Origin: Eledone cirrhosa
Lineage: Eukaryota
NCBI GenBank assembly: GCA_964016885.1
Contig: OZ024741.1
Location: forward strand, 130,634,001 to 130,698,000
Direction: 5' to 3'
Length of the DNA stretch: 64,000 bases
A program made the position numbers and the translations under genes. Position 1 is the stretch's first letter; every line of letters begins with the position of its first letter. Below are positions 1 through 47,559 of the stretch, in pieces. Under the pieces are notes generated by a model, which saw only the letters and a program-made list of their open reading frames with translations, was not told the DNA's origin and made no database searches.

Positions 1-1
1 G

Positions 2-1528
2 AACGGACACCGAGCAATCTGCAAGGCAGCGAAAAATTTTTTCGAAACCCAAGAGCACTGTACGGTCACGTACCGTACAGTAAGTACAAAATCCCGTAGG
101 GTGGAAAGAGCCACAGAGGCCCAAATACAAAAAGCCTTGGGGTCTGTGTGGCAGAGGAAAACGCACATCACCCGAGGCAAAAAATACGCCACCGTAGACG
201 TACTTTTTGCCACACCCCAGGAGGCAAAGGCCCAATCAGTAGTGACCCTAAGGAGCGAGGAAATGGTGTTGGTGCCCTCCTACTGCGGGCAAAAAATTGT
301 GAGGGTCAAACTGACCCACGTCCCCCCCGGAATGACCCCTTCTTGGCTGGCCGCGTCTGTCCTCGTCGGAATCGAGGACAAAACAACTGTACTGCAAGTA
401 CAGAAAAAAGTAAGAGAAGATTGGGTCGGCTCCTCCATTGAGATGCTAATCCAAACCAACCAGGAGTGCATCGAAGCTATCCCGGATGTGATAGACTTCG
501 ATAACGGCACTCAACTGCCCATAAGTGTTGAGGGCAAACGCCCGAAATGCTTTCGCTGTGGATCGAAGACTCACCTCAGGGCCTTCTGCAACGAGAAGAC
601 CCTGAAAAAGGAGAAAACCCCCCTCCTTCCGAATCCGGCTCCACGGCTACCAGCAACAGGACAAGCGGCAACCAGGAACGATAGGTCCGTGGCACCCATA
701 CCCACTCCACGGAAATCAAAGACAGCAGCAGCAGTGGAAATATTAACAACAACAACAGCAATACCAAATGCAGCTGCAACAGAGACTCCAGTGCAAACAT
801 CACCAACAACAACAAGTGACAGAGTGGAGCTGGTACCCCTCCCCGACCTTACAGAATCAGACATGGAGTGTGAGGTGGGAGAGGGATGGCAAAAGGTCGC
901 AAGAAGGCACAAACGCAGAAGCAGCGCATCGTCGCCTTTGAAAAGGGAGGAAAGAAATGAGAAAAGGGTAAAGTCTACTGCAAAGAGACCCACAGCAGCA
1001 ACACCACCAACACCATCACCACCCACACCAGCACCACCATCACCACCGGCGACAACCCCACCGCCAACAACACCTTCAACACCACCACCACAAGCACCAA
1101 CATCGCAAACACAACAACAAAACACACACACCCAGCAACAACGACAAGAAAATAGCAGAACCACACCCCACCCCCAGAAAAACAAATGCACGGCAATAAA
1201 CACACACAACAAGAAACTAATGACTTACATAATTGAACACACAGACATTTCACAACAGGACTACATAATACCAGCACCAATCAAAACGCCAACTAACATA
1301 AGACTGCTAAAAATAGCACAGAAACAATACACAAACATTAAAACGAAATTCCCCAACGCAGTTGGTGATTTCAGGGACCTAGGAGGAACCATTAATCGAA
1401 GAGTATATTCAGACATTCTCTTAGAAGAGGCGACGACCAGCCGAAGGGACGATTCAACGGTCCCTTCACCAGACGATCAAGTGAAAAGGGATGTAAAAAC
1501 CATCCCTCCTCTACCAAAAGTACGGTAA
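2..1528 (+). CDS. Tx1 ORF1 (type A), nucleic-acid-binding protein with CCHC zinc knuckle; open from window start
   Basis: CX2CX4HX4C knuckle CFRCGSKTHLRAFC, Pro/Thr-rich linker, basic patch. Frame is open upstream of the 101 call (NGHRAICK...KSRRVERATE). Confidence 0.88.
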   Translation, partial: NGHRAICKAAKNFFETQEHCTVTYRTVSTKSRRVERATEAQIQKALGSVWQRKTHITRGKKYATVDVLFATPQEAKAQSVVTLRSEEMVLVPSYCGQKIVRVKLTHVPPGMTPSWLAASVLVGIEDKTTVLQVQKKVREDWVGSSIEMLIQTNQECIEAIPDVIDFDNGTQLPISVEGKRPKCFRCGSKTHLRAFCNEKTLKKEKTPLLPNPAPRLPATGQAATRNDRSVAPIPTPRKSKTAAAVEILTTTTAIPNAAATETPVQTSPTTTSDRVELVPLPDLTESDMECEVGEGWQKVARRHKRRSSASSPLKREERNEKRVKSTAKRPTAATPPTPSPPTPAPPSPPATTPPPTTPSTPPPQAPTSQTQQQNTHTQQQRQENSRTTPHPQKNKCTAINTHNKKLMTYIIEHTDISQQDYIIPAPIKTPTNIRLLKIAQKQYTNIKTKFPNAVGDFRDLGGTINRRVYSDILLEEATTSRRDDSTVPSPDDQVKRDVKTIPPLPKVR

Positions 1529-1563
1529 GTGGTCTTTCCCATCTTTTCCACTCTATTTTAAAC

Positions 1564-4500
1564 ATGACCTCACTCAGAATAGGCAGCATAAATGCGCGTG
1601 GCTTGGGGTCGTCATGGAAGCAGGGTCACCTGCTCAACGACCTCAGGTCACTAAACATAGATGTAGTGGCCATCAGCGAGACCAGAATCTCCGAAGCACG
1701 GGCCTTCGCACCGATCTTCGGCGGCTACGATGTGTACGCATCTCCCAGCCGTCCTGGATCGGGTGGAGGAGTTGCTGTGCTTTTTCGGAGAGGTTTGGAT
1801 CTCGCCATACGGGCCATCTTCCTGGACCCAGAGGGTAAGCTGGTGGTGCTGGACGTGACCAGCGGAGACGGGCAAGCTTTCAGGCTAGTGGCCGTCTATG
1901 CCCCGACAGGAGCAGGGCGGCCTGATTTCTTCCGGCGTCTGGAGACCTTTCTTGGAACGTCCCGCTCTTTAGTGTTAGTGGGCGACTGGAACGGGATCTT
2001 AGATGCACGCTGGGACTGTGTGGGATTAGCGGATAGGGGTGGAGGGTGCAAGAGCCTCACCAACCTGCTCAGGCGTTTTGAACTGTCTGACAGGTACCGA
2101 TTGGATTTCCCGAATGTGCCAATGTGGACTTGGACAAACCGCATAGGGTCATCCAGATCATATCTAGATAGAGTATTTTGTAGGGAAATAGATAGGTCTA
2201 GCATAGGCTGTCCACAATTCAAGATAGTCAGCTACACGGACCACAAATTCGTGATCTGTGTGCTTGACTTAGATAGGCTTCATAGACGAGGACCCGGCTA
2301 CTGGAAGCTAAACGCGTCCTTACCAGCGCGCAAGGCCTACAGAGACCGGATTAGCGAACTAGTTAAGCGGGCGTTGACGGGGGCCATCGTCAACAACAAG
2401 TGGTGGTTTGCTCTGAAAAGAGCGATTAGAATAGAATCGATTAGGTTTAGTAAGGCTTTAGCAATAGAGAAAAATAGAGCAGAGGGAGAACTAGTTAGAA
2501 AATTAGACGAGGCGCTTAGCAAAGGCATTGCGACCGACGTGCTTGCGGCGAAATTGGCCCTTGACCAATTCTTCAATGCAAAGCACGAAGGCTGCGTTGT
2601 CAGAGCTAGGGTGCGTGCTCTCAGACACGAGGGGACGAAAGCCGTTCAATGGGCCCGAGTGGCGGAGGCGCGTCGTGGCAACAAAGCCACGATCCGGTCT
2701 TTGGTGGACCACGACGGGCGCATGCTACTCGATCCCGGGCAAATGTGTGAAGCTTTTCAGCGACACTTCGCTCAGCTGTTCGGGGGCAGCGGGGGGCCGG
2801 GTAGAGGGATGGACTTTAGTGTCTACCTCGACGGACTGCCGCGGCTCTCGGCCACTGAGGCGAAGTGTTGCGAAAAGCCGATAACAGCCGCTGAAGTACG
2901 GGAGGCAATGACTGGCTGCACAAGGGGTAAATCGCCTGGTTTAGATGGTCTGCCCTATGAACTTTACGTACAGATGCCAGACTTGTTCGGAGGCCTCTTG
3001 GCGGACGTCTACTGCAACTGGCAACAGAACGGGAGAATTCCCAGTTCTGTGAGCCGAGGAGCGGTGGCACTGCTGAGAAAGGATCCGAACAAGGGAGATA
3101 ACATAGACAATTTCCGGCCCATAACTCTGCTAAACACAGAGTTTAAGATTTTGGCCAAGGTGCTAGCAAAGAGGTTGGCGCTTGTCGTTGGTGGTTTGGT
3201 GGGAGAGGCGCAGACATGCGCCATTCCCGACAGATCCATCCACGACAACCTCCACCTCATGCGATACATCGTAGAGAGGGTAGCTAGGGAACCTGGCACG
3301 GGTGGGTCCTTGATCAATTTAGATCAGTCGAAAGCTTTCGATAGGGTCGACCATCGTTACCTAGCGGCAGTCCTGAGGGCGGCTGGCTTTGGGCCCGTCT
3401 TCAGAGGCTGGATCGCTGCCATGCACAGCGACATCTGCTCTGTAGTGAGAGTGAACGGTCACCTGTCGGAACCGTTCAACATCATGCGCTCGGTCCGCCA
3501 AGGATGTCCCCTCTCGTCCCTCTTGTACGTATTGACTCTCGAGCCATTACTGCACAAACTGGAGACGTTGAGGGGAGTCCCGCGCGAACTAGGATGCGGA
3601 AGATCCGTGTCAGCATATGCGGACGATGTCACCGTAGTGGTGTCGAACGCCAAACACATCGAGGCGATCGGCACTACACTAAGAGAATACGAAGCGGTGA
3701 CAGGAGCAATGATCAACCAGGAAAAGTCAGTGGGCCTGCAGCTCGGCACCTGGAGAGGCAGGTCCATGCCGTCCAACAGCGTCGTCGGGCGCTGGACGGA
3801 CGGACCGGTTAAATTGCTAGGGGTCTGGTTCGGTCCGGACCTCCAGACGGACAAAAACTGGGACGAGGTGACGAGCAGGGTGGCTTCTCTCACCCAGAAA
3901 TGGGCGGAGAGGAAGCTATCCCTGAAAGGTCGAGCGGAGGTGGCTAACGCGTACATCGCGTCTGTCATCTGCTACCGCCTAACCGTCGTACCTTGTCCTA
4001 AGCCTCGCCTGACTGCGCTGGAGCGTTTGCTCTTTCGCTTTTTGTGGAAGGGACGTGCTCCGATGGTCAGGCGGTCCATCTGTTGTCAACACCCGCTACG
4101 TGGAGGGCTGGGCATGCCGTGGCTGATGATGCGCAGGTACGCGCTCAGGCTACGACATCTCCACCTCTTCCTCGACGGTGATCAGGTGTGGTCGCCGTTT
4201 GCTAGACGCGTTTTTCCCCAGCTCGTTTCCTTGACGGAGCTGCAGTCCTGGGTCAAGCGAAGACCGAGAGGGAGCGCCTGGAGACTGGAATGTCTTCAGG
4301 CGCTCACAGCCCTCGACCAATCGGGCAATGTGATCGGTGGAAACTCCACCTCGGCGTTCTATAGAGGATTAGTGGAGGGGAAGAGCGACGACGTACTTGG
4401 GGAAACTCTAGGCGTCGACGAAAATCAACTAGCCAATCTCTTCGGAAGAACTTTCGGGCCAGGGCCTATGGACAACTTCCAGAAATCTCTGGCCTGGCAG

Positions 4501-4983
4501 TGCTACCGAGGAGCCTTGCCAGTTCGGGATAAACTCTACAGGCATGGAGGTGCCGTCAGCCGGGCATGTCCGAGATGCGCGCAGGGCGACGAAACCGTCC
4601 TGCACGCACTCGTCCAGTGTCCGAAAATTGCTGACTTGTGGGTTTATGTCGAACACCTGCTGTCGCGTTTAGGACGGATCCAGCTATCATCTGAGTCTAT
4701 CGTGAGGATTGCCCCGCCCTCCTCCTTTAGCCGGGAAGGGCAGGCAGTTTTTATCTGTCTGGTGGCCATGGCGAAAGAGATAGTATGGTGGACACGTTTG
4801 AAAGGGCTGAAGACGAGCACTTACCTCTTCGGTGATGCTCTGATTGACTTTTTCAAATTTCATTTGAAAAGGAAAATCAGAGTAGAGAAGGAAGTGCTCT
4901 CTTCCCAACATTTTGTTGAAAGATGGGTGAGAGAAGCAAGAATGGCCCGAGTGAATGGGCCGACTCTGAGTATATATCTGTAA
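1564..4983 (+). CDS. Tx1 ORF2: APE endonuclease + reverse transcriptase + C-terminal Cys/His finger, intact 1139 aa
   Basis: APE motifs SINARGL, SETR, VYAP, GDWN, YLDR, TDH; GYWKLN; RT motifs KSPGLDG, FRPITLLN, DQSKAFDRVDH, RQGCPLS, YADD; CPRC...H...C. Confidence 0.96.
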   Translation: MTSLRIGSINARGLGSSWKQGHLLNDLRSLNIDVVAISETRISEARAFAPIFGGYDVYASPSRPGSGGGVAVLFRRGLDLAIRAIFLDPEGKLVVLDVTSGDGQAFRLVAVYAPTGAGRPDFFRRLETFLGTSRSLVLVGDWNGILDARWDCVGLADRGGGCKSLTNLLRRFELSDRYRLDFPNVPMWTWTNRIGSSRSYLDRVFCREIDRSSIGCPQFKIVSYTDHKFVICVLDLDRLHRRGPGYWKLNASLPARKAYRDRISELVKRALTGAIVNNKWWFALKRAIRIESIRFSKALAIEKNRAEGELVRKLDEALSKGIATDVLAAKLALDQFFNAKHEGCVVRARVRALRHEGTKAVQWARVAEARRGNKATIRSLVDHDGRMLLDPGQMCEAFQRHFAQLFGGSGGPGRGMDFSVYLDGLPRLSATEAKCCEKPITAAEVREAMTGCTRGKSPGLDGLPYELYVQMPDLFGGLLADVYCNWQQNGRIPSSVSRGAVALLRKDPNKGDNIDNFRPITLLNTEFKILAKVLAKRLALVVGGLVGEAQTCAIPDRSIHDNLHLMRYIVERVAREPGTGGSLINLDQSKAFDRVDHRYLAAVLRAAGFGPVFRGWIAAMHSDICSVVRVNGHLSEPFNIMRSVRQGCPLSSLLYVLTLEPLLHKLETLRGVPRELGCGRSVSAYADDVTVVVSNAKHIEAIGTTLREYEAVTGAMINQEKSVGLQLGTWRGRSMPSNSVVGRWTDGPVKLLGVWFGPDLQTDKNWDEVTSRVASLTQKWAERKLSLKGRAEVANAYIASVICYRLTVVPCPKPRLTALERLLFRFLWKGRAPMVRRSICCQHPLRGGLGMPWLMMRRYALRLRHLHLFLDGDQVWSPFARRVFPQLVSLTELQSWVKRRPRGSAWRLECLQALTALDQSGNVIGGNSTSAFYRGLVEGKSDDVLGETLGVDENQLANLFGRTFGPGPMDNFQKSLAWQCYRGALPVRDKLYRHGGAVSRACPRCAQGDETVLHALVQCPKIADLWVYVEHLLSRLGRIQLSSESIVRIAPPSSFSREGQAVFICLVAMAKEIVWWTRLKGLKTSTYLFGDALIDFFKFHLKRKIRVEKEVLSSQHFVERWVREARMARVNGPTLSIYL

Positions 4984-5234
4984 ACTAAAGGTGGAAAACT
5001 GGGAGAGGGCACTTGCCTTGGTGGTCAGGGTCATTGTGGCTTTTTACTGGGCTTTCTCCACAAATGTCCCTCCGAAGTCTCCCCCCTATTGGGGAATTTT
5101 TCATTGTTATTTTTTGTTACATCCTCTGTTTTTGTTTTTTACACGCAGAAATGCCCATTTGTACCGTCCTGCATTGTCCTGCACTGTCCTTAATGTCTAC
5201 TTTATGTAAACCCTTGTGGTTAATAAAGAAATCA

Positions 5235-5288
5235 TTATTATTATTATTATTATTATTATTGTTATTATTATTATTATTATTATTATTA
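5235..5288 (+). repeat. (TTA)n microsatellite at Tx1 3' junction
   Basis: direct reading. Confidence 0.95.
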
Positions 5289-5375
5289 AAATAAAGTACC
5301 AGTGATACACTGGAATAATTGCTGGCCTTGTGCCAAAAAGTAGAAACAATTATTATTATTATTATTAGTATTATT
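5289..5375 (+). mobile_element. 5'-truncated SINE 3' tail plus (ATT)n
   Basis: AAATAAAGTACCAGT...TTGCTGGCCTTGTGCCAAAAAGTAGAAACAATTATT matches the ends of full SINE copies such as 53640-53822. Confidence 0.85.
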
Positions 5376-5379
5376 ACAG

Positions 5380-8300
5380 TTGCATTTATCTTGCTTTATG
5401 TTCATACGAGTTATCACCAAGTCACAACCAGTGACCTCAAGAGACAAGATCCGCCATGTTCAGGAAAGAACATACATACACACACATGCATCTTTAGGTG
5501 TTTAGACTTGTGATGTACTTATATTGACAGAATCTTCCTTAGTATATGGGCAGTTCCCATTAGTACTATCTTTTGTATTTCTCCTATACGCGGGTTTCCT
5601 GGGATTTGCGATAAGTAATCAATAGACCCCTTAGGTATCATTCCCAGAGCGCCTACAACCACTGGTATTGTTTTAGTTCTCAATTTCCACATTTTTCAAA
5701 TTTCTATCTCCAGGTCCTTATACTTGCTCAATTTTCCAATGTTTTTATAGATACATTCTTGTCTATTGGAACAGACATATCAATTAGCAGGCATACCCTC
5801 TTTTTAAAGTCCTTCAATATTATATCAGGTCTATTTGCATCTATTTTTCGGTCTGTTTGGATGCTAAAGTTCCACAGGATTGAGATGTGATCTTTTTCAA
5901 GTATGGGAGGTGGTTGATGCTCCCACCAATTCTTTTGATGGGGCAGGTCAAAATGCTTACACATTATCCAATGTATGTATTGTGCAGCTCTGTCATGCCT
6001 GTTTAGGTATTCGGTTGGAGCTATAGGACTGCACGTTGAAATTATATGGTCAATGGTCTCTGGTTGTTTTTTGCATACACGGCATAATGGGCTGCATCCA
6101 TTTTTAATATGTTGGCTTGGTAATTTTTTGTTGGCAGACACTGATCTTGTGCTGATATAATCAGTCCTTCACTCTCCGATTTCAGTCCAGGGGATGCCAA
6201 CCACTGATGGGTTAAAGTTTTGTCAACATCAGGATTGTTAGCTCGTTCTGGGTATTTTCCATACTGAGGCTTTTCTTGCCATTTCTTAGCCAGTTTCTGT
6301 AGCAGTTCTTTCTTTGCAGTTACTTTTACCTGCTTTGCTTTTTCTGTGTTTTCCATTTCAGCAGTAAATGGGACTTCTGAAATTTGTAGTCCATTACTGT
6401 ATCTTTGTGCATCTTTTGTAATGGAATATGATCTTTTGATGCTTTCGTGTTTCAAAACGAGTTTGATCATCCAATCATGTGATTCCCTTAGATATGTAGA
6501 TAATCCAATTGTCGCAGTTTTCAACGCAATGTCTAACTGGATTAACCCACGTCCTCCTTCTTTCCTAGGGAGATATATTCTATCTATATCTGCCTTAGGG
6601 TGATGCATTCTGTGCATGGTTAAGAATTTTCGAATTTTTGTATCGAGCCTACGGATCTCTGTGCTTGATCAGTTGATGACATTGTAACTGTAGGTTACTA
6701 CAGGTATGGCAAGCGTGTTTATGGCATCGATCCTATTCCTTGCATTCAATTCCGTTCTTAAGATCGCTCTTACTCTGCGGTAACATTCCTTCCTTATCCT
6801 TTCCCTCATTGTCGAGTGCTTGATTCCGTCTCCTTCACAAGCACCTAGATATTTGTAAGTTTTTTCTTGATCAAGTTCTCTTATCACGTTCCCCCGATCA
6901 AGATTAATGTCTGAACTCTTCAGCAGCTTTCCTCTGGTGAACGTTGCTTTGGCGCATTTATCTAGTCCAAACTCCATTTTAATGTCATCACTGAACTGCT
7001 CCACAGTGGATAATAGCCCTTGCAATTGTTCATCATTTTTTGCAAATAGTTTCAGGTCATCCATGTAGAACAGGTGATTAATGGTTTTGTCATAGACTTT
7101 ATATCCATGTTTTGTTTCATTGAGCATTTTACTTAATGGTATAAGTGCGATGCAGAATAAAAGCGGTGATAAAGAGTCACCCTGAAAAATTCCACAATTA
7201 ATATTAACTTCTCCAGCTTCCAGTGATTTTGTTTCACTATTCAAAAGGAGTGTCGTTTTCCATGTCTTCATACTGAATGACAAAAACCTCCTGACAACGG
7301 GGGATATTTTGAAAATCTCTAAACATTTTTCAATCCAACTGTGTGGCAAACTATCGAATGCTTTTTTATAATCTATCCAAGCAATCGATAGATTTTTGTG
7401 TCTATTATGACAATCTTCCAGTATCATTTTGTTAACCAGAAGCTGATCCTTACAGCCATATGAGCCTCGTTTACACCCTTTCTGCTCAATGGGAAATAGG
7501 TCATTTGTTATCAGGTGGTCATATGTGTATTCAGTTAGGACTGATGTTAAAATTTTATACATTGTGGTCAAGCAAGTTATCGGTCTGTAATTTTGGGGAT
7601 TGTTTGTCTCATCATTCTTCGGAAGCAGGAATGTAATGCCGTTAACTAGCCATGATGGTATCTTTTCTGGCTCCTTAACTATTTCATTGTAAAGTTGGGC
7701 TAACAGCTCATGAGACTCTGTGAAGGCATTTATCCAAAAGTTTTGTATTTTGTCTTTTCCTGGGGATTTCCATTTGCTGGTTTTTCTTAGAGCCAAGCGC
7801 AACTGTTCAACTGTTATATTTTCCCATATTTGTTCCTCAAGGTGAGCTGTATCTTTCATTTGTCTGTCTATCCATGGGGCATGTATGTTATGAAATGTTT
7901 CTTCGGCCCAGATCTTTTCCCAGAATTCTTGCACTTCCTCCTTGGGTGGTATTGATTTAGCAGTTATTGTTGACTTACCAATTATTCTGTAGAAGTTTCT
8001 TTGGTTGTTTTTGAACATATTATTGTCCTTATAGAATCTAGATCGTTTTTCAAAGCGCCTTATACGAGCAGCTTTAGCCGACACTTTTTGCTTGATTATT
8101 TCTATCAACATGTCTATGTCACATGTTGATTTTATACTGTACTTTTCTTTCAATTTTCTAAGTTTAGTTTGTTTAACATGTTCACCTACTTTATATTTTG
8201 TTAAAATTTCTATGTCAGATCGGAGAAGGTTTATTTGGCGATTGATGTTCTCTTGCCAAGTAGATTTCTTGTGGGAATTCCTTTGTATTTTCATCTTCAC

Positions 8301-9340
8301 TCCACATAAGTGAGTGGTGACTTTAGCCGATGCATAATAGAGATGATTTAAATCAGTAATGTTTAGTTTGTTTGTGATGATAATGTTTTTGAGAATTATG
8401 TTAGTCTTGTGTATTATCTTTTGGTTCTGTTTGGAGTTCTGGATCTTAGGGAGGGTGTCTCGTTGTCCCATGTCAGATTCTTTCATTTTCATCCATTCGA
8501 TCAAAATTTCATCCTTCAAGTTGGCAAGTTCATTCTCATTCCTTTCTTTATCATTTACGATCTCATTATTTTCATTTGGAGTTTCATCCTGAGCATGCAC
8601 TCCCTCCACTTTTTCGATCCTTTCTTTAATTTGTTCTGTTGCCAGTGATTCCGCCCCATCCCTGGGATTCGAAGTGTTACAGTTTACCTCGTTTTCACTG
8701 ACACATGTTTCATTTTCCCTTCGCTGACTTTGTGCTAATAGCTTGATCTGATCAATTTCTATATCAGTTAGTAACTTTTTTCTTACAATATTTCTTCGTA
8801 TATTGGCTAGTTTGTTACTGTCAGTATAGCCTCTGTTTTCGGGATGTTTCTTTTTCCAGTTGATATATCTCTGTTCTGTATTCGATGTATTTGATGGGTA
8901 GTACATGGCAGTGTAGAAAGCCTCAAGGACTTCTTTATTATCTTCCCTTGACCATTTTTCTCTCTTTTTCTTTGGATTTCTTGGTGGTGAGCATGGAGGG
9001 CCAACAGTAGGAGTATTCCGGTTATGGGAGGTCTCCAGCTCCGAAGTGATGGGATGGTTTGAACCATTAGCTGATTTTTCGACCCCAGTCTGGTTCCTCT
9101 CTGAGGGACGCGGCCCTTTTTTACCCGGGTGACGGCCGATCCGGTATGAGATTTTATCATTAGACATTTACTTTATTTTGTCGCGTTTTATCCTTATCCG
9201 CCAAGGGGTAATCATTTCGTGTTACCACTTCTAGAACGAGTGTCAACCAAGACTAGAGGGGTCGTTCTCCCCTAGAGACAAGGCTATTCCCCGCCGGCCG
9301 CCATCCCGGTATTTCTTGGTCACGGGGTTTTCTTTTTGTT
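5380..9340 (-). mobile_element. R4/Dong-like RLE non-LTR retrotransposon, near full length, copy A
   Basis: Single RT-RLE reading frame with short UTRs; 3' end abuts (TAA)n on its own strand. Confidence 0.88.
5519..9167 (-). pseudogene. RT + CCHC + restriction-like endonuclease ORF, disrupted
   Basis: RT motifs WKSPGKD, YRPITCL, DYKKAFDS, GIFQGDSLSP, YMDDLK; CRVC...H...C, RHD, RPDI, IDMSVP. In-frame TGA at 6669 and two 1-nt deletions (~6100, ~5735) relative to copy B. Confidence 0.88.
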
Positions 9341-9409
9341 GTTTTTTTTAAATTGTTATTATCATGAGTGATTCCTTAATGTGAGCATTGCGTGGCTTAA
9401 GAATGAAAT

Positions 9410-9466
9410 TATTAATAATTGTCTCCACTCCAGGCACAAGGCCAGCAATCACCCAGTGCATTACAA
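9410..9466 (-). mobile_element. SINE 3' tail fragment
   Basis: reverse complement reads GTAATGCACTGGGTGATTGCTGGCCTTGTGCCTGGAGTGGAGACAATTATT. Confidence 0.7.
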
Positions 9467-10323
9467 TAATATAATATACTTTTTGCAGTAGTTGCCTGTT
9501 ATTCTTGTTGACTATGTCGGTGGTGGTGCCGGGGCTTTTTATATTGTTGGTGAGGAAGGGGTGAGCCAGCAGTCCCATATTTGTTGATGTTGACGTTTGG
9601 CCGGTGGCCAGGTCACTAAGTCAATCTATTTATATCTTTTGCTAGCCTCTCCCTTGTCTAGTGATACCGCCACCTTCCCCTTTCTCTCTCAAGTTAACAG
9701 GGGAATAGTGGTGGTAGCAATGAAGGAGTGGTGGCGGCGGCGATGGGATAGTGGTAGCAATGATGGATGGGGTGGGGTGGTGGCAGCGGTGGCGTTGTGG
9801 TTACTGATATGTAGTATCTATGAGTTTGTGTTCGCATGTTTAATATATATTGTGTTGACATATTCCCGTAAAATTGGAATTAAACATTTTGTTAAAATTT
9901 GAGACAATAATAAAAGTAATTATTATTATGATGCTGGGATTGATGGTGGTGGTGGTGAAATTGCCGTTATCTGGCTGTTATATTTAGTGTGATGGGATAG
10001 GTGGTGTATCAAGTTTTTGGTGTTGGTGAAATTGCTGATATTTGGCTGTTCTATATAGTGTAGACAGAGGGTGTTTTCTTCCATTTATAACCATTTTCTT
10101 TTTTTTGAATACAAAATATATAATACAAAATTGAATATTTGAGCGATACAACAATATAATATGGATCCGAAAATTTATGGGACCTCATTCGGTGGTTTAT
10201 GCACCATTTGTACTAAGAATTGTTATTTCACAATTGATTTAAATATGTTAAAAATCAAAAACTTACGGGAGCGATTTCATGACCTTCTACCACCTCGTGC
10301 GTCTTCTTCCCTTATTCTTCTTC

Positions 10324-10375
<52 letters not shown>

Positions 10376-10376
<1 letters not shown>

Positions 10377-11633
10377 TGCATTTATCTTGCTTTATGTTCA
10401 TACGAGTTATCACCAAGTCACAACCAGTGACCTCAAGAGACAACAAGGTCCGCCATGTTCAAGAAAGAACATACATATTCACACATGAATCCTTAGTGTC
10501 TAGACTTGTGATGTACTTATATTGACAGGATCTTCCTTAGTATATGGGCAGTTCCCATTAGTACTATCTTTTGTATTTCTCCTATACGCGGGTTTCCTGG
10601 GATTTGCGATAAGTAGTCGTTAGACCCCTTAGGTATCATTCCCAGAGCGCCTACAACCACTGGTATTGTTTTAGTTCTCAATTTCCACATTTTTCCAATT
10701 TCTATCTCCAGGTCCTTATACTTGCTCAATTTTTCAAATGTTTTTATAGATACATTCTTGTCTATTGGAACAGACATATCAATTAGCAGGCATACCCTCC
10801 TTTGAAAGTCCTTCAATATTATATCAGGTCTATTTGCATCTATTTTTCGGTCTGTTTGGATGCTAAAGCTCCACAAGATTGAGATGTGATCTTTTTCAAG
10901 TATGGGAGGTGGTTGATGCTCCCACCAATTCTTTTGATGGGGCAGGTCAAAATGCTTACACATTATCCAATGTATGTATTGTGCAGCTCTGTCATGCCTG
11001 TTTAGGTATTCGGTTGGAGCTATAGGACTGCACATTGAAATTATATGGTCAATGATCTCTGGTTGTTTTTTGCATACACGGCATAATGGGCTGCACCCAT
11101 TTTTTATTATGTTGGCTTGGTAATTTTTTGTTGGCAGACACTGATCTTGCGCCGATATAATCAGTCCTTCAGTCTCCGATTTCAGTCCAGAGGATGCCAA
11201 CCACTGATGGGTTAAAGTTTTGTCAACATCAGGATTGTTAGCTCGCTCTGGGTATTTTCCATACAGAGGCTTTTCTTGCCATTTCTTAGCCAGTTTCTGT
11301 AGCAGTTCTTTCTTTGCAGTTACTTTTACCTGCTTTGCTTTTTCTGTGTTTTCCATTTCAGCAGTAAATGGGACTTCTGAAATTTGTAGTCCATTACTGT
11401 ATCTTTGTGCATCTTTTGTAATGGAATATGATCTTTTGGTGCTTTCGTGTTTCAAAACGAGTTTGATCATCCAATCATGTGATTCCCTTAGATATGTGGA
11501 CAATCCAATTGTTGCAGTTTTCAACGCAATGTTTAACTGGATTAACCCACGTCCTCCTTCTTTCCTAGGGAGATATATTCTATCTATGTCTGCCTTAGGG
11601 TGATGCATTCTGTGCATGGTTAAGAATTTTCGG

Positions 11634-11637
<4 letters not shown>
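10376..11637 (-). mobile_element. R4/Dong-like element copy B, 5'-truncated, with open C-terminal ORF (10517-11617)
   Basis: Near-identical to 5380-6640; CCHC and PD-(D/E)xK RLE motifs intact; (ATT)n on both sides (10325-10375, 11636-11667). Confidence 0.9.
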
Positions 11638-11667
<30 letters not shown>

Positions 11668-11876
11668 GGCGACCTACGTAGGAAATCGTATTATCGTGAG
11701 CTCCGCAAAGGTTTGTTATTTCCGTTTGTTTAAAAATTGCCATTTATGGAAAATTTTATTGTAAACTGTTTATAAGCACACATACATTGTTTTCCGAAAA
11801 GGACACCCAAAAAGATTGGGGCCTTGTGCCCAAAATTTTAACTTTTATTATTATCCAAAAATTTCTTTGAAAAAAA

Positions 11877-13865
11877 ATGGCTAATTCCCCTCTGCACGAA
11901 GCAGCTGAAAGCCTTCCTCACAAAATAACACCTCACACCGACACCACCATTGTAAATGTTACTACGTTTGCCAACACAAAAAAAAATATAAGCAGTAGCA
12001 ATATTTTAAATTTGTCTCAGGCAGACATTCATTTCCCGCCATTACCAATGACTGCAGGTGTTAAACCCTCCACCACCACCACCACCGCAACAACCACCAC
12101 CACCACCACCACCACCACCGCGACAACAGAAACAAAAGAAGAAAAAAATAAATTAACTCGTGACGTCGAAATGAAATCAAGCAAAATGGACTCTTCCCCA
12201 CCAAAGACGACTGACGTCACAACCACCACAACTGAAAATAAAATTAATATTAACGATAGCAACAACAACAACAATGACATTATAAAACCGACCCTCAGTT
12301 TCGCCATCGTAGCAAAACAATTCGAAGCGTTCACGGTAACCCAAGAAGATTTAGAAAATGCCAAACAAATGGTAAAGAAAGATGGGTACAGGGTCAGCCT
12401 CACCCCCCACCTAATAAAATGGAGCATCGGCGCCTGTGCACCGTGTCGTATAGAACAATAAATGTAAAATCGCGCCGAGTGGAACGGGCATCCGAGTCCC
12501 AAATCCAAAAAGCTTTGGGACATGTGTGGGCAAGAAAAACCCACATCAGACGTGGGCAAAAGTATGGAACCGTGGATGTGTTCTTTGAAACACCAGAGGA
12601 GGCTAGAGAACACTCCATGGCCCCATTAAAAAGTGACGACCTCACACTCGTCCCAAGCTATTGTGGCCAGAGACTCGTAAAGATCAGGGTGACCCACGTT
12701 CCACCGGCCATCGAAATTCCCTGGCTAATAGCAGCTGTCCTCACCGGCATCGAAGCCAACACGAAAATAATAGCAGTAGCAAAAGAAAAGCAGGAAAACT
12801 GGTCCGGATCTGGGATGGAGCTCCTGATCCAAGCGGACCAAAAAAGCATTGAGGAGATCCCAGAGGTAATAGACCTCACTGACGGCAGCCACCTCACGGT
12901 AATTGTCGAGGGCAGAAGACCTAGGTGTGTCGTTTGTGGTGAAGGAACCCACCTAAGGGCTTTCTGCCCTCAGGCTAAAAGGTTGAGGCCACCTCTCCTA
13001 CCCACCCCAGTGACAAAACCATCAACACCACCAGTAGCAGAGATGGCAGCAACAACTGTAGCAGCAACAACAGAAGCAACTATAACAGCAACAACCCCAG
13101 CAACAGTAGCAAAACCAACACCACTACCACCACCAGCAAAACCAACACCACCACCACCCAACGCTTCAGAACTAGCACCAGCGCCTACACCATCCACCAC
13201 ACCACAACCAAAACTAACGGCTGTGGAGGATTTTCCACTCCCCGGCCTATCACAACTGGAGACAGATTGTGACGACGAGGAGTGGGAAACGATATCCGGA
13301 AAAAAAAAAAAACCAAAAAAGAAAAAATTCTCTTCCTTCCCCCTCCAAAAACAAAATACAGAGGGAAACAAATAAACTAAGAAACAAAAAAGTTAGGACA
13401 GATATGCCACCATCCACACCAGCATCACCAACCCCATCAACCCAAACACCAACACCATCACCATCATTATCCCCAGCACCACCATCACCTACACCACAAA
13501 AGTCACCAAAATTCGAAACAGAAACAAACCCACAACAAACGCAAACAAAACAAAACAACCAAAACGATACACACTACACAGCATTAAATTTGAACAACAA
13601 GCAATTATTACACTACATCCAACACAACACCAGCATCACAGAAAAAGACTACACAACAACCCCAAAATTCACACCACCTCCACACATACAAATCACTCGC
13701 ATCACACAGAAAACGTACATGACACTAAAACAAAAATTCCCCAAAGACATCGGAGACTTCCGACAAGCACTCTCCAGGAGGATTTATAAGGACATCCTTC
13801 CTGAGGAGGCCACAAGCAGTGAAAAGGATGGAAAAGCCGTCCTTCCCCTACGAGAAGTAAGGTAA
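11877..13865 (+). CDS. Tx1 ORF1 (type B), split by frameshifts at a C-run (~12405) and an A-run (~13305)
   Basis: Segments 11877-12461, 12419-13375 and 13269-13865 join into a protein homologous to ORF1 of copy 1; knuckle CVVCGEGTHLRAFC. Confidence 0.82.
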
Positions 13866-13899
13866 GTGGTCTTTCCCATCTTTTCCACTCCTTTTCAAC

Positions 13900-16800
13900 A
13901 TGACCTCACTCAGAATAGGCAGCATAAATGCGCGTGGCTTGGGGTCGTCATGGAAGCAGGGCCACCTGCTCAACGACCTCAGGTCACTAAACATAGATGT
14001 AGTGGCCATCAGCGAGACCAGAATCTCCGAAGCACAGGCTTTCGCACCGATCTTCGGCGGCTACGATGTGTACGCATCTCCCAGCCGTCCGGGATCGGGG
14101 GGAGGAGTTGCTGTGCTTTTTCGGAGAGGTTTGGATCTTGCCATACGGGCCATCTTCCTGGACCCAGAAGGTAAGTTGGTGGTGCTGGACGTGACCAGCG
14201 GAGACGGGCAAGCTTTCAGGTTAGTGGCCGTCTATGCCCCGACAGGAGCAGGGCGGCCTGATTTCTTCCGGCGTCTGGAGACCTTTCTTGGAACGTCCCG
14301 CTCTTTAGTGTTAGTGGGCGACTGGAACGGGATCTTAGATGCACGCTGGGATTGTGTCGGATTAGTGGATAGGGAAGGAGGGTGCAAGAGTCTCACCAAC
14401 CTGCTCAGACGTTTTGAACTGTCTGACAGGTACCGAATGGATTTCCCGAATGTACCAATGTGGACTTGGACAAACCGCATAGGGTCATCCAGATCATATC
14501 TAGATAGAGTATTTTGTAGGGAAATAGATAGGTCTAGCATAGGCTGTCCACAATTCAAGATAGTCAGCTACACGGACCACAAATTCGTGATCTGTGTGCT
14601 TGACTTAGATAGGCTTCATAGACGAGGACCCGGCTACTGGAAGCTAAACGCATCCTTACCAGCGCGCAAGGCCTACAGAGACCGGATTAGCGAACTAGTT
14701 AAGCGGGCGTTGACGGGGGCCATCGTCAACAACAAGTGGTGGTTTGCTCTGAAAAGAGCAATTAGAATAGAGTCCATTAGGTTTAGTAAGACTTTAGCAA
14801 TAGAGAAAAATAGAGCAGAGGGAGAATTAGTTAGAAAATTAGATGAGGCGCTTAGCAAAGGCATCGCGACCGACGTACTTGCGGCGAAATTGGCCCTTGA
14901 CCAATTCTTCAATGCAAAGCACGAAGGCTGCGTTGTCAGAGCTAGGGTGCGTGCTCTCAGACACGAGGGGACGAAAGCCGTTCAATGGGCCCGAGTGGCG
15001 GAGGCGCGTCGTGGCAACAAAGCCACGATCCGGTCTTTGGTGGACCACGACGGGCGCATGCTACTCGATCCCGGGCAAATGTGTGAAGCTTTTCAGCGAC
15101 ACTTCGCTCAACTGTTCGGGGGCAGTGGCGGGCCGGATCGAGGGATGGACTTTAGTGTCTACCTCGACGGACTGCCGCGGCTTTCGGCCACTGAGGCGGA
15201 GTGTTGCGAAAAGCCGATAACAACCGCTGAAGTACGGGATGCAATGACTAGTTGCACAAGGGGAAAATCGCCTGGTTTGGATGGTCTGCCCTATGAACTT
15301 TACGTACAAATGCCAAACTTGTTCGGAGGCCTCTTGGCGGACGTCTACTGCAACTGGCAACAGAACGGGAGAATTCCCAGCTCTGTGAGCCGAGGAGCGG
15401 TGGCGCTGCTGAGAAAGGATCCGAACAAGGGGGATAACATAGATAATTTTAGGCCCATAACTCTGCTAAACACAGAGTTCAAGATTTTGGCCAAGGTGCT
15501 AGCAAAGAGGTTGGCGCTTGTCGTTGGTGGTCTGGTGGGAGAGGCACAGACATGCGCCATTCCCGACAGATCCATCCACGACAACCTCCACCTCATGCGA
15601 TACATCGTAGAGAGGGTAGCTAGGGAACCTGGCACGGGTGGGTCTTTGATCAATTTAGATCAGTCGAAAGCCTTCGATAGGGTCGACCATCGTTACCTAG
15701 CGGCAGTCCTGAGGGCGGCTGGCTTTGGGCCCGTCTTCAGAAGCTGGATCGCTGCCATGCACAGCGACATCTGCTCTGTAGTGAGAGTGAACGGTCACCT
15801 TTCGGAACCGTTCAACATCATGCGCTCGGTCCGCCAAGGATGTCCCCTCTCGTCCCTATTGTACGTATTGACTCTCGAGCCATTACTGCACAAACTGGAG
15901 ACGTTGAGGGGGGTCCCGCGCGAACTAGGATGCGGAAGATCCGTGTCAGCATATGCCGACGATGTCACCGTAGTGGTGTCGAGCGCCAAACACATCGAGG
16001 CGATCGGCACTACACTAAGAGAATACGAAGCGGTGACAGGAACAATGATCAACCAGGAAAAGTCAGTGGGCCTGCAGCTCGGCACCTGGAGAGGCAGGTC
16101 CATGCCGTCCAACAGCGTCGTCGGGCGCTGGACGGACGGACCGGTTAAATTGCTAGGGGTCTGGTTCGGTCCAGACCTCCAGACGGACAAAAACTGGGAC
16201 GAGGTGACGAGCAGGGTGGCTTCTCTCACCCAGAAATTGGCCGAGAGGAAGCTATCCCTGAAAGGTCGAGCGGAGGTGGCGAATGCGTACATCGCATCCG
16301 TCATCTACTACCGCCTGACCGTCGTACCTTGTCCTAAGCCCCGCCTGACTGCGCTGGAGCGTTTGCTCTTTCGCTTCTTGTGGAAGGGACGCGCTCCGAT
16401 GGTCAGGCGGTCCATCTGCTGTCAACACCCGCTACGTGGAGGGCTGGGCATGCCGTGGCTGATGATGCGCAGACACGCGCTCAGGCTACGACATCTCCAC
16501 CTCTTCCTCGACGGTGATCAGGTGTGGTCGCCGTTTGCAAGACACGTTTTTCCCCAGCTCGTCTCCTTGACGGAGCTGCAGTCCTGGGTCAAGCGAAGAC
16601 CGAGAGGGAGCGCTTGGAGACTGGAATGTCTTCAGGCGCTCACAGCCCTCGACCAATCGGGCAATGTGATCGGTGGAAACTCCACCTTGGCGTTCTATAG
16701 GGGATTAGTGGAGGGGAAGAGCGACGACGTACTTGGAGAAACTCTAGGCGTCGACGAAAATCAACTAGCCAATCTCTTCGGAAGGACTTTCGGGCCGGGG

Positions 16801-17319
16801 CCTATGGACAACTTCCAGAAATCCCTGGCCTGGCAGTGCTACCGAGGAGCTTTGCCAGTTCGGGATAAACTCTACAGGCATGGAGGTGCCGTCAGCCGGG
16901 CATGTCCGAGATGCGCGCAGGGCGACGAAACCGTCCTGCACGCACTCGTCCAGTGTCCGAGCATTGCTGACTTGTGGGTTTATGTCGAACACCTGCTGTC
17001 ACGTGTAGGACCTATCCAGCTATCAGCTGAGTCCATCGTGAGGATTGCCCCGCCCCCTTCCTTTAGCCTGGAAGGGCAGGCAGTTTTTATCTGTCTGGTG
17101 GCCATGGCGAAAGAGATAGTATGGTGGACACGTTTGAAAGGGCTGAAGACGAGCACTTACCTCTTCGGTGATGCCCTGATTAACTTTTTCAAATTTCATT
17201 TGAAAAGGAAAATCAGGGTAGAGAGGGAAGTGCTCTCTTCCCAGCATTTTGTTGAAAGATGGGTGAGAGAAGCAAGTATGGCCCGAATGAATGGGCCTTC
17301 TCTGAGTATGTGTCTGTAA
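13900..17319 (+). CDS. Tx1 ORF2 (APE-RT), intact 1139 aa
   Basis: Colinear with 1564-4983; about 30 aa differences by manual comparison. Confidence 0.96.
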   Translation: MTSLRIGSINARGLGSSWKQGHLLNDLRSLNIDVVAISETRISEAQAFAPIFGGYDVYASPSRPGSGGGVAVLFRRGLDLAIRAIFLDPEGKLVVLDVTSGDGQAFRLVAVYAPTGAGRPDFFRRLETFLGTSRSLVLVGDWNGILDARWDCVGLVDREGGCKSLTNLLRRFELSDRYRMDFPNVPMWTWTNRIGSSRSYLDRVFCREIDRSSIGCPQFKIVSYTDHKFVICVLDLDRLHRRGPGYWKLNASLPARKAYRDRISELVKRALTGAIVNNKWWFALKRAIRIESIRFSKTLAIEKNRAEGELVRKLDEALSKGIATDVLAAKLALDQFFNAKHEGCVVRARVRALRHEGTKAVQWARVAEARRGNKATIRSLVDHDGRMLLDPGQMCEAFQRHFAQLFGGSGGPDRGMDFSVYLDGLPRLSATEAECCEKPITTAEVRDAMTSCTRGKSPGLDGLPYELYVQMPNLFGGLLADVYCNWQQNGRIPSSVSRGAVALLRKDPNKGDNIDNFRPITLLNTEFKILAKVLAKRLALVVGGLVGEAQTCAIPDRSIHDNLHLMRYIVERVAREPGTGGSLINLDQSKAFDRVDHRYLAAVLRAAGFGPVFRSWIAAMHSDICSVVRVNGHLSEPFNIMRSVRQGCPLSSLLYVLTLEPLLHKLETLRGVPRELGCGRSVSAYADDVTVVVSSAKHIEAIGTTLREYEAVTGTMINQEKSVGLQLGTWRGRSMPSNSVVGRWTDGPVKLLGVWFGPDLQTDKNWDEVTSRVASLTQKLAERKLSLKGRAEVANAYIASVIYYRLTVVPCPKPRLTALERLLFRFLWKGRAPMVRRSICCQHPLRGGLGMPWLMMRRHALRLRHLHLFLDGDQVWSPFARHVFPQLVSLTELQSWVKRRPRGSAWRLECLQALTALDQSGNVIGGNSTLAFYRGLVEGKSDDVLGETLGVDENQLANLFGRTFGPGPMDNFQKSLAWQCYRGALPVRDKLYRHGGAVSRACPRCAQGDETVLHALVQCPSIADLWVYVEHLLSRVGPIQLSAESIVRIAPPPSFSLEGQAVFICLVAMAKEIVWWTRLKGLKTSTYLFGDALINFFKFHLKRKIRVEREVLSSQHFVERWVREASMARMNGPSLSMCL

Positions 17320-17561
17320 ATTAAAGGTGGAAAACTGGGAGAGGGCACTTGCCCTGGTGGTCAGGGCCACTGTGGTCTTTTAATGGGCTTTCTCCACAAA
17401 TGTCCCTTGGAAGTCTCCCCCCTATTGGGGAATTTTTCTTTGTTATTTTATTTCAACCTCTGTTTTTTTACACGCAGAAATGCCCATTTGTACCGTCCTG
17501 TATTGTCCTGTACTGTCCTTAATGTCTACTTTATGTGAACCCTTGTGGTTAATAAAGAAAA

Positions 17562-17619
<58 letters not shown>

Positions 17620-20600
17620 GTTCTTTGAGTCACAGTCATTGATGTTAGTTAACTGGAAAGTTTGTTGAAATGCCCGCCCAGCCAGTGGGATGGCGTCTTC
17701 TTATGGTTAAAACAGCACGAAGAAAAGGGCCTCAGTACCCTGCGCGTCAATCGGGCCATTACACGACGGCGGAGTGCAACCCGAGCGACGAGAGGCTGCT
17801 AAGAATCACAGGTTCCCGAAGGCCGCCAAGGAACAGGACTAACTTTGCCCCATATGCACCTACAACTGAAGGTCTTTGGCAGGGGGGCAAGGACTGAACC
17901 ACCTCATGGAGGAGAAGAAGAAGATCAGGTGCGACGTGTTAGGGCTGTGCGAGACCCGCCAGAAGAAGGAGGCGAGTTTACGATGGCAAGATGGATGCGC
18001 CTTGAGACTCGGGAAAGCAGAGGGTGCCAGATCGGTCGGATGTAAGGAATGGGCTTCGAAGGTCGCTTCTTGCCAGTTCATATCGTCACGGATTGGTGTA
18101 CTGAACGCGAACCTCTCAGGGAAGGCCACCCTCACGATCGTCCAGACCTACGCTCCCACAAGTGCCAGCGACGACGATGAGGTGGAAGAATTCTATCGCC
18201 AGCTAGACAAAGTGCTAGCTGTGAAGTCCACTTACACCGTCGTGATGGGAGACTTCAACGCAAAGGTCGGACAGGGACGGCAAGGGGAAAAGTATGTTGG
18301 AAGATTCGGCCTAGGAGAGCGAAATGAGAGAGGAGAGCGTCTGGTCACCATGGCGGAGGTGAGACGGTTCTACATCGGAAACAGCCTATTCAGAAAGAAG
18401 GAGAAGAGATGGACCTGGGTATCGCCAAATTTTGAGCACCGAAACGAGATTGACTACATCTTGGTCGACAAGCGACGCATACTACAGGACGTCTCCGTCA
18501 TAACGCCATTCAACACTGGCAGTGATCATCGTCTGGTGAGAGCGAGGGTCGTCATCGACCGGACGAGGGAGAAGAACGCGCTGCATTTGGCGTCGAAGGG
18601 AGAATGCGTCCGGGTCTTCAACGAGGCGCAGCTGCAGGAAGCAGGAAAAGTGGCGTCAAGGAGACGGCATAGACGCTGACTACGACTCACTGATAAGGAA
18701 ACTGAAGGAGTGCTTGAGGAACGCTAAGGGTGTGTGCCCGAGGGAGTGGAAGAGAAGAGTCTCGGAGGAAACTATGAAGTTGCTTAAGAAGAGGAAGAAT
18801 ATGAAGAGGACACCTGAAAATCACCTCGAATATTCCCTTCTCAACAGAGTGATACGTCAACAAATGAAGAGTGAATTCGAGGCATACCGGATGGAGAAGC
18901 TCCTGAAGGCCGCAAAGGAAAAGAAGGGCCTCAAGAAATGCGAAAGGGACATGACAATGTACAGATCGGAGGTGACGACCCAGAAAAACACAGCTGGAGT
19001 ACCGGTCAGCGACAAGAGTGAGGTGGAAAAGGTTTGCGAAGACTTCTACACTAAGCTCTTCAAGTCTGCCGGGAATGTGCAGCCGTTGCCGTCACTCCAA
19101 CAGGAAGAAAATGTGCCACCCATCCTTGTCGGTGAGGTCGAAAGAGCCGTCGGCTTGATGAAAAGCGGAAAGGCGCCAGGGAAAGACGGCATAACATCGG
19201 AGGTGTTGAAGTCAGGCGGAGAGCAGCTCTGGAAAATCCTCGCCGAGCGATTCACACACTATCTTGACGAGGGAAGAATACCCTCGCAGTGGAAAGAGTC
19301 GAATACCATCCTGCTATACAAGAACGGCGATAGAGAAGATCTGAAGAACTACCGACCCATATGCCTGCTGTCTCACGTGTACAAGCTGTTCACGAAGATA
19401 ATCCTGATCAGGTTATCACGTCATCTGGACGAACAGCAACCGAGAGAGCAAGCCGGCTTCCGGAAAAACTACAGCACGATGGACCACATATTTATTCTGA
19501 CACAACGGCTTGAGCGAGCAAAAGAGTACAAGATGCCTCTGCGTCGCGTTCGTAGACTACGAGAAGGCCTTCGACAGCGTCGAAATCAATGCAGTCCTGA
19601 ACTCGCTGCAGAGGCAAGGAGTCGAGGCGCAATACGTTCAACTGCTCAGGGAGGCGAGTTCCGGATGCACCACCGACATCTGCTGTCATCACCCGTTCAA
19701 GTGCCGGTCGAGAAGGGAGTGAAGCAAGGAGATACGATCTCTCCAAAACTTTTCACCGCGTGTCTCGAGCAGATCATCAGAGGCATTGACTGGCAAGGTG
19801 GTGTCAACATCAACGGCGAGATACTTACCCACCTCCGTTTCGCTAATGACATCGTGCTCATCGCTGAAACCGCGGATCAGCTTCAGACCATGCTGACGGA
19901 GCTCGACATCAAAAGCTCTGCAGTAGGCCTCAAGATGAACCGCATGAAAACGAAGTTCATGCGGTCCGACAACGTACCAACAGGTCGAATGGTGGTTGGC
20001 GGTGATGAAATAGAGGAGGTGGAGGAGGTGGAGGAATACGTCTACCTGGGACAAGAAGTGAACATGCGCCGAGACATTGAGAGGGAGATCTCGCGGAGAG
20101 TAAGGGCCGGATGGAAGGCGTTCAACGGCATAAGGGATGTGCTCAAGGGGAGGTTGGACAAGACCACCCGCGCCAACCTCTTCAATAGCACAGTTTTACC
20201 TGCAATGTTATATGGCAGTGAAACTTGGGCTACAACGAAGAGAGAAGAGCAGAGGCTGGTAACGGCTCAAAGAGCCATGGAGAGATCAATGCTAGGAATC
20301 TCGTTGAGAGAGCACATCAGGAGCGAAGTCATCAGACAGAAGTCCGGCGTGAGGGACGTCATCACGGAATATATGCGCAGCAAGTTCAGATGAGCTAGAC
20401 ACGTCGCCTGGTTCACCGATAATCGGTGGACCCGCGCAGTTGCCGAGTGGTACCCGCGCGAGCGGAAACGACCACTCGGAAGGCCTCCATGAGGGTGGAG
20501 TTACGATTTTAAGAATACGATTGGGAATACATGGATGAGGAAAGCACGATCCAGAGAGGAATGGGCGGCGTGCTGTGACCAGCGGCGCTGAATGGACGCC

Positions 20601-20629
20601 CGACATACTGGTCAGTCAAGGTGATCAAG

Positions 20630-20633
<4 letters not shown>
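17620..20633 (+). mobile_element. RTE-clade LINE, decayed (APE-RT, stops and frameshifts)
   Basis: ICTYN*RSL, GLCETR, YAPTS, GDFNAK, EIDYIL, GSDHR; KAPGKDG, YRPICLL, FVDYEKAFDS, GVKQGDTISP, FANDIVL; tandem 3' tail (TCAAGGTGA)2 typical of RTE. Confidence 0.88.

Positions 20634-31240: not shown

Positions 31241-31333
<93 letters not shown>
31185..31333 (+). mobile_element. SINE 3' tail plus long (ATT)n directly upstream of Tx1 copy 3
   Basis: AGTACCAGTAATGTACTGGGTAATTGCTGGCCTTGTGCCTAAAAGTAGAAACA followed by (ATT)n. Confidence 0.85.
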
Positions 31334-35165: not shown

Positions 35166-35299
35166 TATATAAGATGGTTTTGATGATGATGATGATGATG
35201 GTTGTGAGGTATTAGCGACGTGCGAGTGATTTTGCATTTGTTATGATAGTATTGGAGTGTTAGTCGGAGTATTGATGGTAATGGAGGTGTTGATGGTGG

Positions 35300-47400: not shown

Positions 47401-47559
47401 ATTTATCCGAACAAAAATACACTTAACACTTCGAAGGAGAAAACTTGTAGTTTGTAGTTTAGATTTGAAATATTTTTCCTGCGAATCCCGTTCTGTTTCT
47501 TTTCTAACACACCTCATATTATGCATACTTATATATAAAAATACTCGGACTCAAACACA

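Follow-up and report, generated by a model that had tools for sequence, protein, structure and literature searches.

The window, by which we mean the whole 64,000-nt stretch of DNA that was analysed, contains three LINE copies, all on the + strand and all belonging to one non-LTR retrotransposon. Copy 1 starts beyond base 1 of the window and extends to an (ATT)n tail at 5234. Its ORF1, designated type A, is an open frame at positions 2 to 1528 whose 5' end, like the type A 5'UTR, lies outside the window. The core of this ORF1 (35 to 589) is predicted to contain a pair of RRM-like domains and, after them, a CCHC knuckle, and its C-terminal region (1103 to 1462) showed homology to that of type B, the ORF1 of the other two copies, and to other ORF1 relatives (matches to P0054, P0088, P0070, P0058, and P0060). 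A splice-donor-like GTAAGT (1525 to 1530) overlaps the ORF1 stop of copy 1 and is followed by an intact ORF2 of 1139 aa (1564 to 4983) with APE endonuclease, reverse transcriptase, and zf-RVT domains; by a predicted acceptor-like site in the 3'UTR, composed of a pyrimidine tract and CAG (5124 to 5148) and identified with a simple pyrimidine score; and by AATAAA at 5222 with the (ATT)n tail at 5234 to 5288. Copy 2 is full-length (11668 to 17562) and has a (TTA)n microsatellite at its 5' end (11636 to 11667). It consists of a 5'UTR and type B ORF1 (11668 to 13865, ATG at 11877), a donor-like GTAAGT (13862 to 13867), an intact ORF2 (13900 to 17319), and a 3'UTR region (17320 to 17619) containing an acceptor-like site ending at 17477, AATAAA at 17551, and an (ATT)n tail at 17563 to 17619. 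The ORF1 frame of copy 2 is interrupted twice, in a C run near 12405 and in an A run near 13305; these breaks are either real or assembly errors. Copy 3 (31334 to 33599) lies just downstream of an (ATT)n run at 31241 to 31333 and consists of a 5'UTR and type B ORF1 94.3% identical to those of copy 2; it ends 40 nt into ORF2.

The ORF2 protein scored above the Pfam cut-off for Exo_endo_phos, RVT_1, and zf-RVT, and its closest PDB sequence match was human L1 ORF2p (residues 5–855, E 3e-52), with R2 giving only 1e-21. As the element has two ORFs and ends in AATAAA and a simple-repeat tail, and no terminal repeat was found when the window was compared with itself for LTRs, both its ORF2 domains and its overall organization identify it as an L1-superfamily non-LTR retrotransposon. 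The ORF1 core was modeled with a pLDDT of 95, giving a pair of RRM-like domains and a CCHC knuckle; the best fold matches of this model are the tandem RRMs of HuD, HuR, and IMP3 (E 9e-5 to 9e-4), and the core fell in the Atlas zf-CCHC and ZCCHC3-RBD clusters. RRM domains and a CCHC knuckle in ORF1 are typical of the Tx1 clade, and the element has both as predicted domains; we call this L1-clade LINE Tx1-like by resemblance. (TTA)n adjoins both of the two visible 5' ends and both of the two intact 3' ends, a count drawn from three copies only and with target duplications unreadable inside the repeat. In the accessible text of PMC4494074, Kibi and Koshi are described as Tx1-clade elements that target microsatellites, and they resemble our element in having an L1-like ORF2 and a microsatellite association, although the repeat unit differs and the Tx1 placement here is by resemblance. 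The available part of a paper on octopus LINEs treats an RTE element, without mention of Tx1 (PMC9115989).

Searches with the ORF1-A protein, whole or as the C-terminal region, gave no match among the lengths searched (279–889 aa only). A profile search with ORF1 yielded 513 relatives, those with names being from Octopus and Argonauta, so that the host is likely an octopus; among the 150 of them that were listed none was close (best 36–52% identity) and there was no clean ORF1-ORF2 fusion. One profile relative, P0194, was a degraded fragment. No relative was found among viral contigs, and a literature search short on subscription journals and without Repbase and supplements returned no description of this LINE family.

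Copies 1 and 2 were originally predicted to carry divergent ORF1s on a near-identical ORF2, and the counts on which that prediction rested were reproduced. The two ORF2s (1564–4983 and 13900–17319) differ at 32 of 1139 aa, where about 30 had been given, and at 108 of 3420 nt, corresponding to a dS of 0.096 and a dN of 0.013, with dS even along the length (0.05–0.15 across six blocks). For ORF1, a hand count of the alignment gave the same 57 matches in the first 94 core residues as before; over the entire core, 105 of 185 aligned positions are the same in types A and B, with a pS of 0.775 and a pN of 0.27. The linker, which had been called poorly alignable, matches at 35 of 111 aligned residues, and the C-terminal domain at 45 of 108 aa with a pS of 0.74. 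Types A and B are homologous throughout, including the C-terminal domain, which makes them diverged lineages rather than unrelated modules. Because the silent sites of ORF1 are saturated, fast protein evolution does not explain the gap between ORF1 and ORF2; rather, the contrast in silent sites indicates that the two halves of the element differ in age. Between copies 2 and 3, ORF1 has a dS of 0.12–0.13 and a dN of 0.06–0.09, so that the internal depth of type B is about that of the ORF2 split between copies 1 and 2. These results support a recombinant history of the copies, not a difference in rate.

A 20-mer placed by the original prediction at the point where identity begins was present at 1524, 13861, and 33521 and did not occur in 100 shuffles. 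When a two-rate fit of mismatch was applied to copies 1 and 2, the best change point was 1524, with a support range (positions within 2 log-likelihood units) of 1518–1528. The rise in identity had been described as abrupt at the ORF1 end; its position was confirmed, but it proved to be stepped, since mismatch was about 40% at 1200–1437, fell in a transition zone of intermediate identity at 1480–1523 (8 substitutions and 1 indel, about 80% identity), and was then about 3%. The two copies align collinearly across the junction; the sequences on either side of it are homologous, and no bases have been added. Only one exchange event is visible in the window.

Contigs from four of 24 listed public runs (X1, X2, X6, and X8) were compared with positions 1–5220. 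One contig from X1 covers 901–3270 (2370 letters) with 10 differences from copy 1 and no gap, and crosses the junction, extending 623 nt upstream of it and 1746 nt downstream. With 43 differences between copies 1 and 2 in 1564–3063 alone, the 10 differences place ORF1-A on the copy-1 ORF2 haplotype. An X6 contig also bridges the junction (1202–1590); X6 differs from X1 in study and organism label, and X1 is possibly related to the source sample. An assembly chimera in copy 1 had been named as an outcome that would overturn the prediction, and contigs of two studies bridging the junction are a strong argument against one. We concluded that the reality of the copy-1 junction is strongly supported. 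Type A contigs differed from copy 1 at only 4 of 883 and 10 of 2370 letters, supporting the conclusion that type A is young. In X2 and X8, type A sites lay under tens of contigs, with common differences from copy 1, and type B's one-base-shorter spacer was present in X2 and X6. The recombinant form has thus been amplified as a family, with type A in many contigs, type B in two copies in the window, and the types of a sister family (below) on several contigs. In X2, X6, and X8 summed contig depth climbed at the junction, but such depth is not equivalent to copy number and was given no weight.

A genome search yielded 42 loci, 38 of which belong to one sister family arranged in tandem arrays in a single assembly; 54 distinct copies were recovered, 49 of them long enough for clustering. 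Sister ORF2 is 41% identical to that of the window, and sister ORF1 is homologous to the window ORF1 core (24%, E 8e-10). Sister ORF2 groups are at most 7.4% apart and ORF1 C-terminal types up to 50% apart, and three ORF2 haplotypes each occur with two ORF1 types (30%, 40%, and 37% apart). Among pairs with both ORF2 segments less than 1% apart, 139 of 298 have ORF1 C-terminal DNA more than 20% apart, whereas among pairs with C-terminal DNA less than 3% apart, 0 of 153 have ORF2 more than 2% apart, the pairs in both counts being non-independent. In the sister family, therefore, a single ORF2 goes with many ORF1s, whereas a single ORF1 never goes with many ORF2s. For three pairs sharing an ORF2 (1155/1155, 1155/1155, and 990/992 identical aa), the ORF1 core pS was 0.76, 0.81, and 0.47, and the last 25 ORF1 codons had a pS of 0.05–0.10. 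These three sister cases support the conclusion that the exchange recurs in the clade. The ORF2 identity in this family could also stem from polishing or assembly collapse, and arrays ease exchange at the DNA level relative to dispersed copies. No RNA-gene target was found in the sister arrays (Rfam, four loci).

Sister breakpoints were read from 24 hand-picked pairwise profiles and numbered from the ORF2 ATG. The stretch of dense differences stops at −137 in one case and at −87 in the two others, and the donor lies at −13, so that the three ORF1/ORF2 switches fall about 75–125 nt upstream of the donor and none downstream. One array unit switches inside ORF1 (about −1400), and arrays compared with one another have a patchy ORF2 identity (0–16% difference per 200-nt bin). 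Between −81 and +3, sites that distinguish the ORF2 groups mostly go along with ORF2, and identity declines stepwise toward the ORF1 end, as it does in the window copies. The original prediction was that whole cassettes are exchanged at a fixed junction on the donor. Exchange of ORF1 on a shared ORF2 is borne out by the silent-site contrast, the real junction, and the three sister cases; the fixed junction failed in the sister family, where switches lie away from the donor and ORF2 is patchy, and is not supported.

Recombination of this general kind has been described in other LINEs. As set out in the accessible text of PMC3600994, the mouse L1MdTf and L1MdGf families are recombinants that arose in three events with different breakpoints, for which three mechanisms were proposed, including strand switching and an RNA/DNA heteroduplex. 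As in Tf and Gf, the ORF1 and 5' end of one lineage are found here on the ORF2 of another, the 5' and 3' parts differ in divergence, and the recombinant has been amplified as a family. In contrast, according to the same part of that source, breakpoints in mouse fall within the 5' part of ORF2, and the 3' half of mouse ORF1 is very conserved across families, whereas here the switches are at the ORF1 3' end and the ORF1 cores are about 57% identical with saturated silent sites; our ORF1, predicted to be RRM-RRM-CCHC, also differs from that of mouse Tf and Gf. CR1/L2 elements are reported in the available portion of PMC4120745 to show reticulate ORF1 evolution with whole-ORF1 transfer, and they share with our element a constrained ORF2 and a variable ORF1 transferable as a whole; their transfers, as described there, are ancient and between clades, whereas here homologous ORF1s occur on 97–100% identical ORF2s within one family. 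The mosaic is therefore real and recurrent in the clade, and is a variant of known LINE recombination with an unusually deep ORF1 divergence on a common ORF2. As families defined by reverse transcriptase conceal several deeply diverged ORF1 lineages, classification or dating based on reverse transcriptase misjudges this clade. The presence of many ORF1s per ORF2 also provides a natural system for asking why ORF1s and 5' ends are kept diverse, whether by host silencing, promoter, or RNP specificity.

GTAAGT was present at the ORF1 end in 54 of 54 sister copies, which had been selected by a pattern that includes the motif. A protein-based search gave 40 loci, of which 38 had it and two belonged to different families. 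The strict motif was seen in none of 63 other loci and in 10 of 3810 background windows. The 63 loci comprised 61 of 80 metagenome loci, taken as a control, whose matches (22–32% identical) start near the ORF2 start, together with L112 and L119; one more was dropped for its short flank. L112 has an ORF2 that is as close (41–48%) but lacks the strict motif, which thus occurs in two of three near families. In the sister family the ORF1 stop precedes the motif, and in the window copies it falls within the motif; retention of the motif across 41% ORF2 identity and a different stop frame points to a constraint on RNA, not protein, and identity at this position is therefore partly expected from constraint.

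The acceptor-like site ending at 5148 in copy 1 and 17477 in copy 2 ranked first of 175 and 185 YAG sites, respectively, by the simple pyrimidine score, and in each copy the donor tied for first with two other sites by U1 complementarity. The predicted joining would remove ORF2 (3624 nt in copy 1 and 3616 nt in copy 2), leaving an RNA with 19 extra codons, then a stop and AATAAA. That the element splices out its whole ORF2 to produce an ORF1-only mRNA is a real possibility, which from these motifs we would place slightly short of an even chance. The 3'UTRs are T-rich, so acceptor-like sites arise easily, and since the whole 3'UTR is conserved in the sister family, its acceptor-like site is not distinctive in that respect. 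No ORF2-less unit was found in 50 spacings of 65 sister sites (49 at 6.4–6.9 kb and one at 5.3 kb). None of 15 joints examined in the public contigs ran from the donor to the 3'UTR; with 2334 further joints and 7208 loose ends beyond these, this weighs neither for nor against the splice. If the predicted splice is true, a LINE could set its ORF1:ORF2 ratio directly. HAL1, or 'half-L1', elements are ORF1-only, genomic non-autonomous families of the L1 clade; unlike these, no ORF2-less processed copy was found here in the sister spacings or the loci examined. In the accessible text of PMC5580714, splicing of Ty1/Copia yields a short GAG-only subgenomic RNA, and control of premature termination by U1 snRNP is named; Copia, however, is an LTR element using a local splice and premature termination, whereas the intron predicted here, in a non-LTR element, is 3.6 kb and comprises the whole of ORF2. 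An ORF2-skipping splice in a LINE was not found in a literature search with thin coverage of subscription journals and with supplements unopened. Two further candidates were rejected. A shared hairpin across the donor was predicted in copies 2 and 3 (z −2.5 and −2.0) and not in copy 1 (z −1.3), and splicing to nearby AGs would fuse ORF1 and ORF2 in frame in the window, but as a clade-wide role this is ruled out by the sister stop, which precedes the donor.

We consider it probable that homology-dependent exchange has repeatedly set a young ORF2 and 3'UTR module behind old ORF1 lineages, halting where homology ends near the ORF1 end. ORF2 would stay similar enough between co-resident subfamilies for exchange, whereas ORF1 would not. 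Among dispersed copies the exchange may occur during reverse transcription, by a template switch or an RNA/DNA heteroduplex, and in tandem arrays conversion or unequal crossing-over may also take part. Repeated tracts of differing age would produce stepped identity in the last 50–200 nt of ORF1, and the donor motif would be a separate clade-conserved RNA signal, forming a conserved stretch at the edge and not a required crossover site. The window change point, a single event, does lie exactly on the donor (1518–1528), which is a point against exchange to the edge of homology.

That position speaks for a swap coupled to splicing, a recast form of the original prediction, in which the donor would serve to make an ORF1-only RNA. 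Reverse transcriptase would copy ORF2 from a full-length RNA and then jump to the ORF1-only RNA of a different subfamily packaged alongside, so that crossovers would fall on the donor or shortly upstream of it. The three sister switches upstream of the donor with none downstream, the motif counts (54 of 54 sister copies against none of the 63 other loci and the few background windows), the first-ranked acceptor-like site in both window copies, and the many ORF1s per ORF2 are also in its favor. We nevertheless regard this mechanism as unlikely, as breakpoints occur inside ORF1 and within ORF2 too, the sister spacings revealed no ORF2-less unit, the related family L112 lacks the strict motif, and homogenization to the edge of homology predicts equal positions. 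The fuller proposal, that an ORF2-skipping splice makes abundant ORF1-only mRNA and that this RNA is the template-switch partner, keeping ancient 5'UTR-ORF1 alleles as interchangeable heads on one reverse transcriptase/endonuclease pool, seems to us improbable as a whole. Nested insertion, in which a 5'-truncated, ORF2-only copy lands directly behind the ORF1 of another element to form a hybrid, was proposed for ORF1 shuffling in CR1/L2 (available portion of PMC4120745) and would yield a sharp junction between the ORFs. It has little chance of applying here, since the junction is collinear without extra bases, the elements sit in (TTA)n runs and the junction has no such run, and the sister switches fall within the coding end of ORF1. 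ORF1 is less constrained than ORF2, as the dN between copies 2 and 3 illustrates, but much faster ORF1 evolution under positive selection with no recombination is scarcely credible when silent sites are saturated in ORF1 and have a dS of about 0.10 in ORF2, the sister pairs behave likewise, and the ORF1 core pN of 0.27 is far below its pS of 0.78. An assembly chimera in copy 1 might be suspected from the repeat-rich window, the homopolymer frame breaks in copies 2 and 3, which hint at assembly errors, and the chance that one of the public runs is the source sample, but it too can hardly be entertained, as the junction is spanned by contigs from two studies, one of them on the copy-1 ORF2 haplotype, and ORF1-A and its ORF2 are both open.

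Just within ORF2 lie two AGs, at 1576-77 and 1585-86, downstream of the donor-like GTAAGT at the end of ORF1 (window 1525-1586 in copy 1; 13862-13922 in copy 2). As judged from the sequence, splicing to these AGs would remove predicted introns of 53 or 62 nt, so that the ORF1 reading frame would run on into that of ORF2. By a simple pyrimidine score, the first AG inside ORF2 ranked 4th among the 185 YAG sites of copy 2. Past the predicted acceptor-like site in the 3'UTR, the frame in which ORF1 would continue ran for 19 codons before reaching a stop (5149-5209 in copy 1 and 17478-17538 in copy 2), which was TAA in copy 1 but TGA in copy 2, and AATAAA was located a short distance 3' of this stop.

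At least half of the words from window 1-2600 were present in 11 public sequencing runs carrying 8 organism labels, and haplotypes of type A, the ORF1 lineage of copy 1, from organism labels A and C were each >99% identical to copy 1. In both type B copies, the frame was lost at the same two homopolymer runs (12400-12412 and 13298-13312 in copy 2; 32062-32071 and 32958-32970 in copy 3), which could stem from errors in the assembly or from mutation by slippage; programmed frameshifting is a less likely cause. Copy 3 stops at 33599, 40 nt inside ORF2, where it abuts an older repeat with a 68% match to 46996-47418; its 3' loss is likely a later deletion.

In the sister family, a related LINE, a second donor-like GTRAGT was observed about 14 nt 3' of the ORF2 stop; it was present in all 36 of the 36 copies of sufficient length, with both the A and G forms occurring, and was not seen behind the ORF2 stop in the window copies. 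Loci L081-L121, most of them sister copies, are on 16 contigs of CAXXMW01, a bacterial MAG, and comprise tens of head-to-tail LINE copies, mostly intact, in arrays of 6.4-6.9 kb. These arrays are likely animal DNA binned together with the bacterium.

An 11-base motif of the type B 5'UTR (11820 and 31487) recurs at two nearby short repeats (5325 and 31217), just 5' of (ATT)n runs, and was also found in the sister spacer; it is possibly a common SINE-tail-like element. (TTA)n also bounds two minus-strand elements between copies 1 and 2, an unrelated RT-encoding element (5349-9167) and a partial copy of it, 96.6% identical (10344-11637). On the plus strand, 3' of the copy 2 tail, is a disrupted element carrying both an endonuclease and an RT (17650-20630), which we take to be RTE-like from its resemblance. 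At 60636-64000 and 35250-37110 the window has long tandem arrays, degenerate in sequence, in which both strands contain open frames. Outside the window, a distant L1-like element at locus L119 (ORF2 identity 28%) is flanked by two U1 snRNA matches (L119:3036-3199 and 9961-10137), an arrangement that may represent a U1-targeting family.
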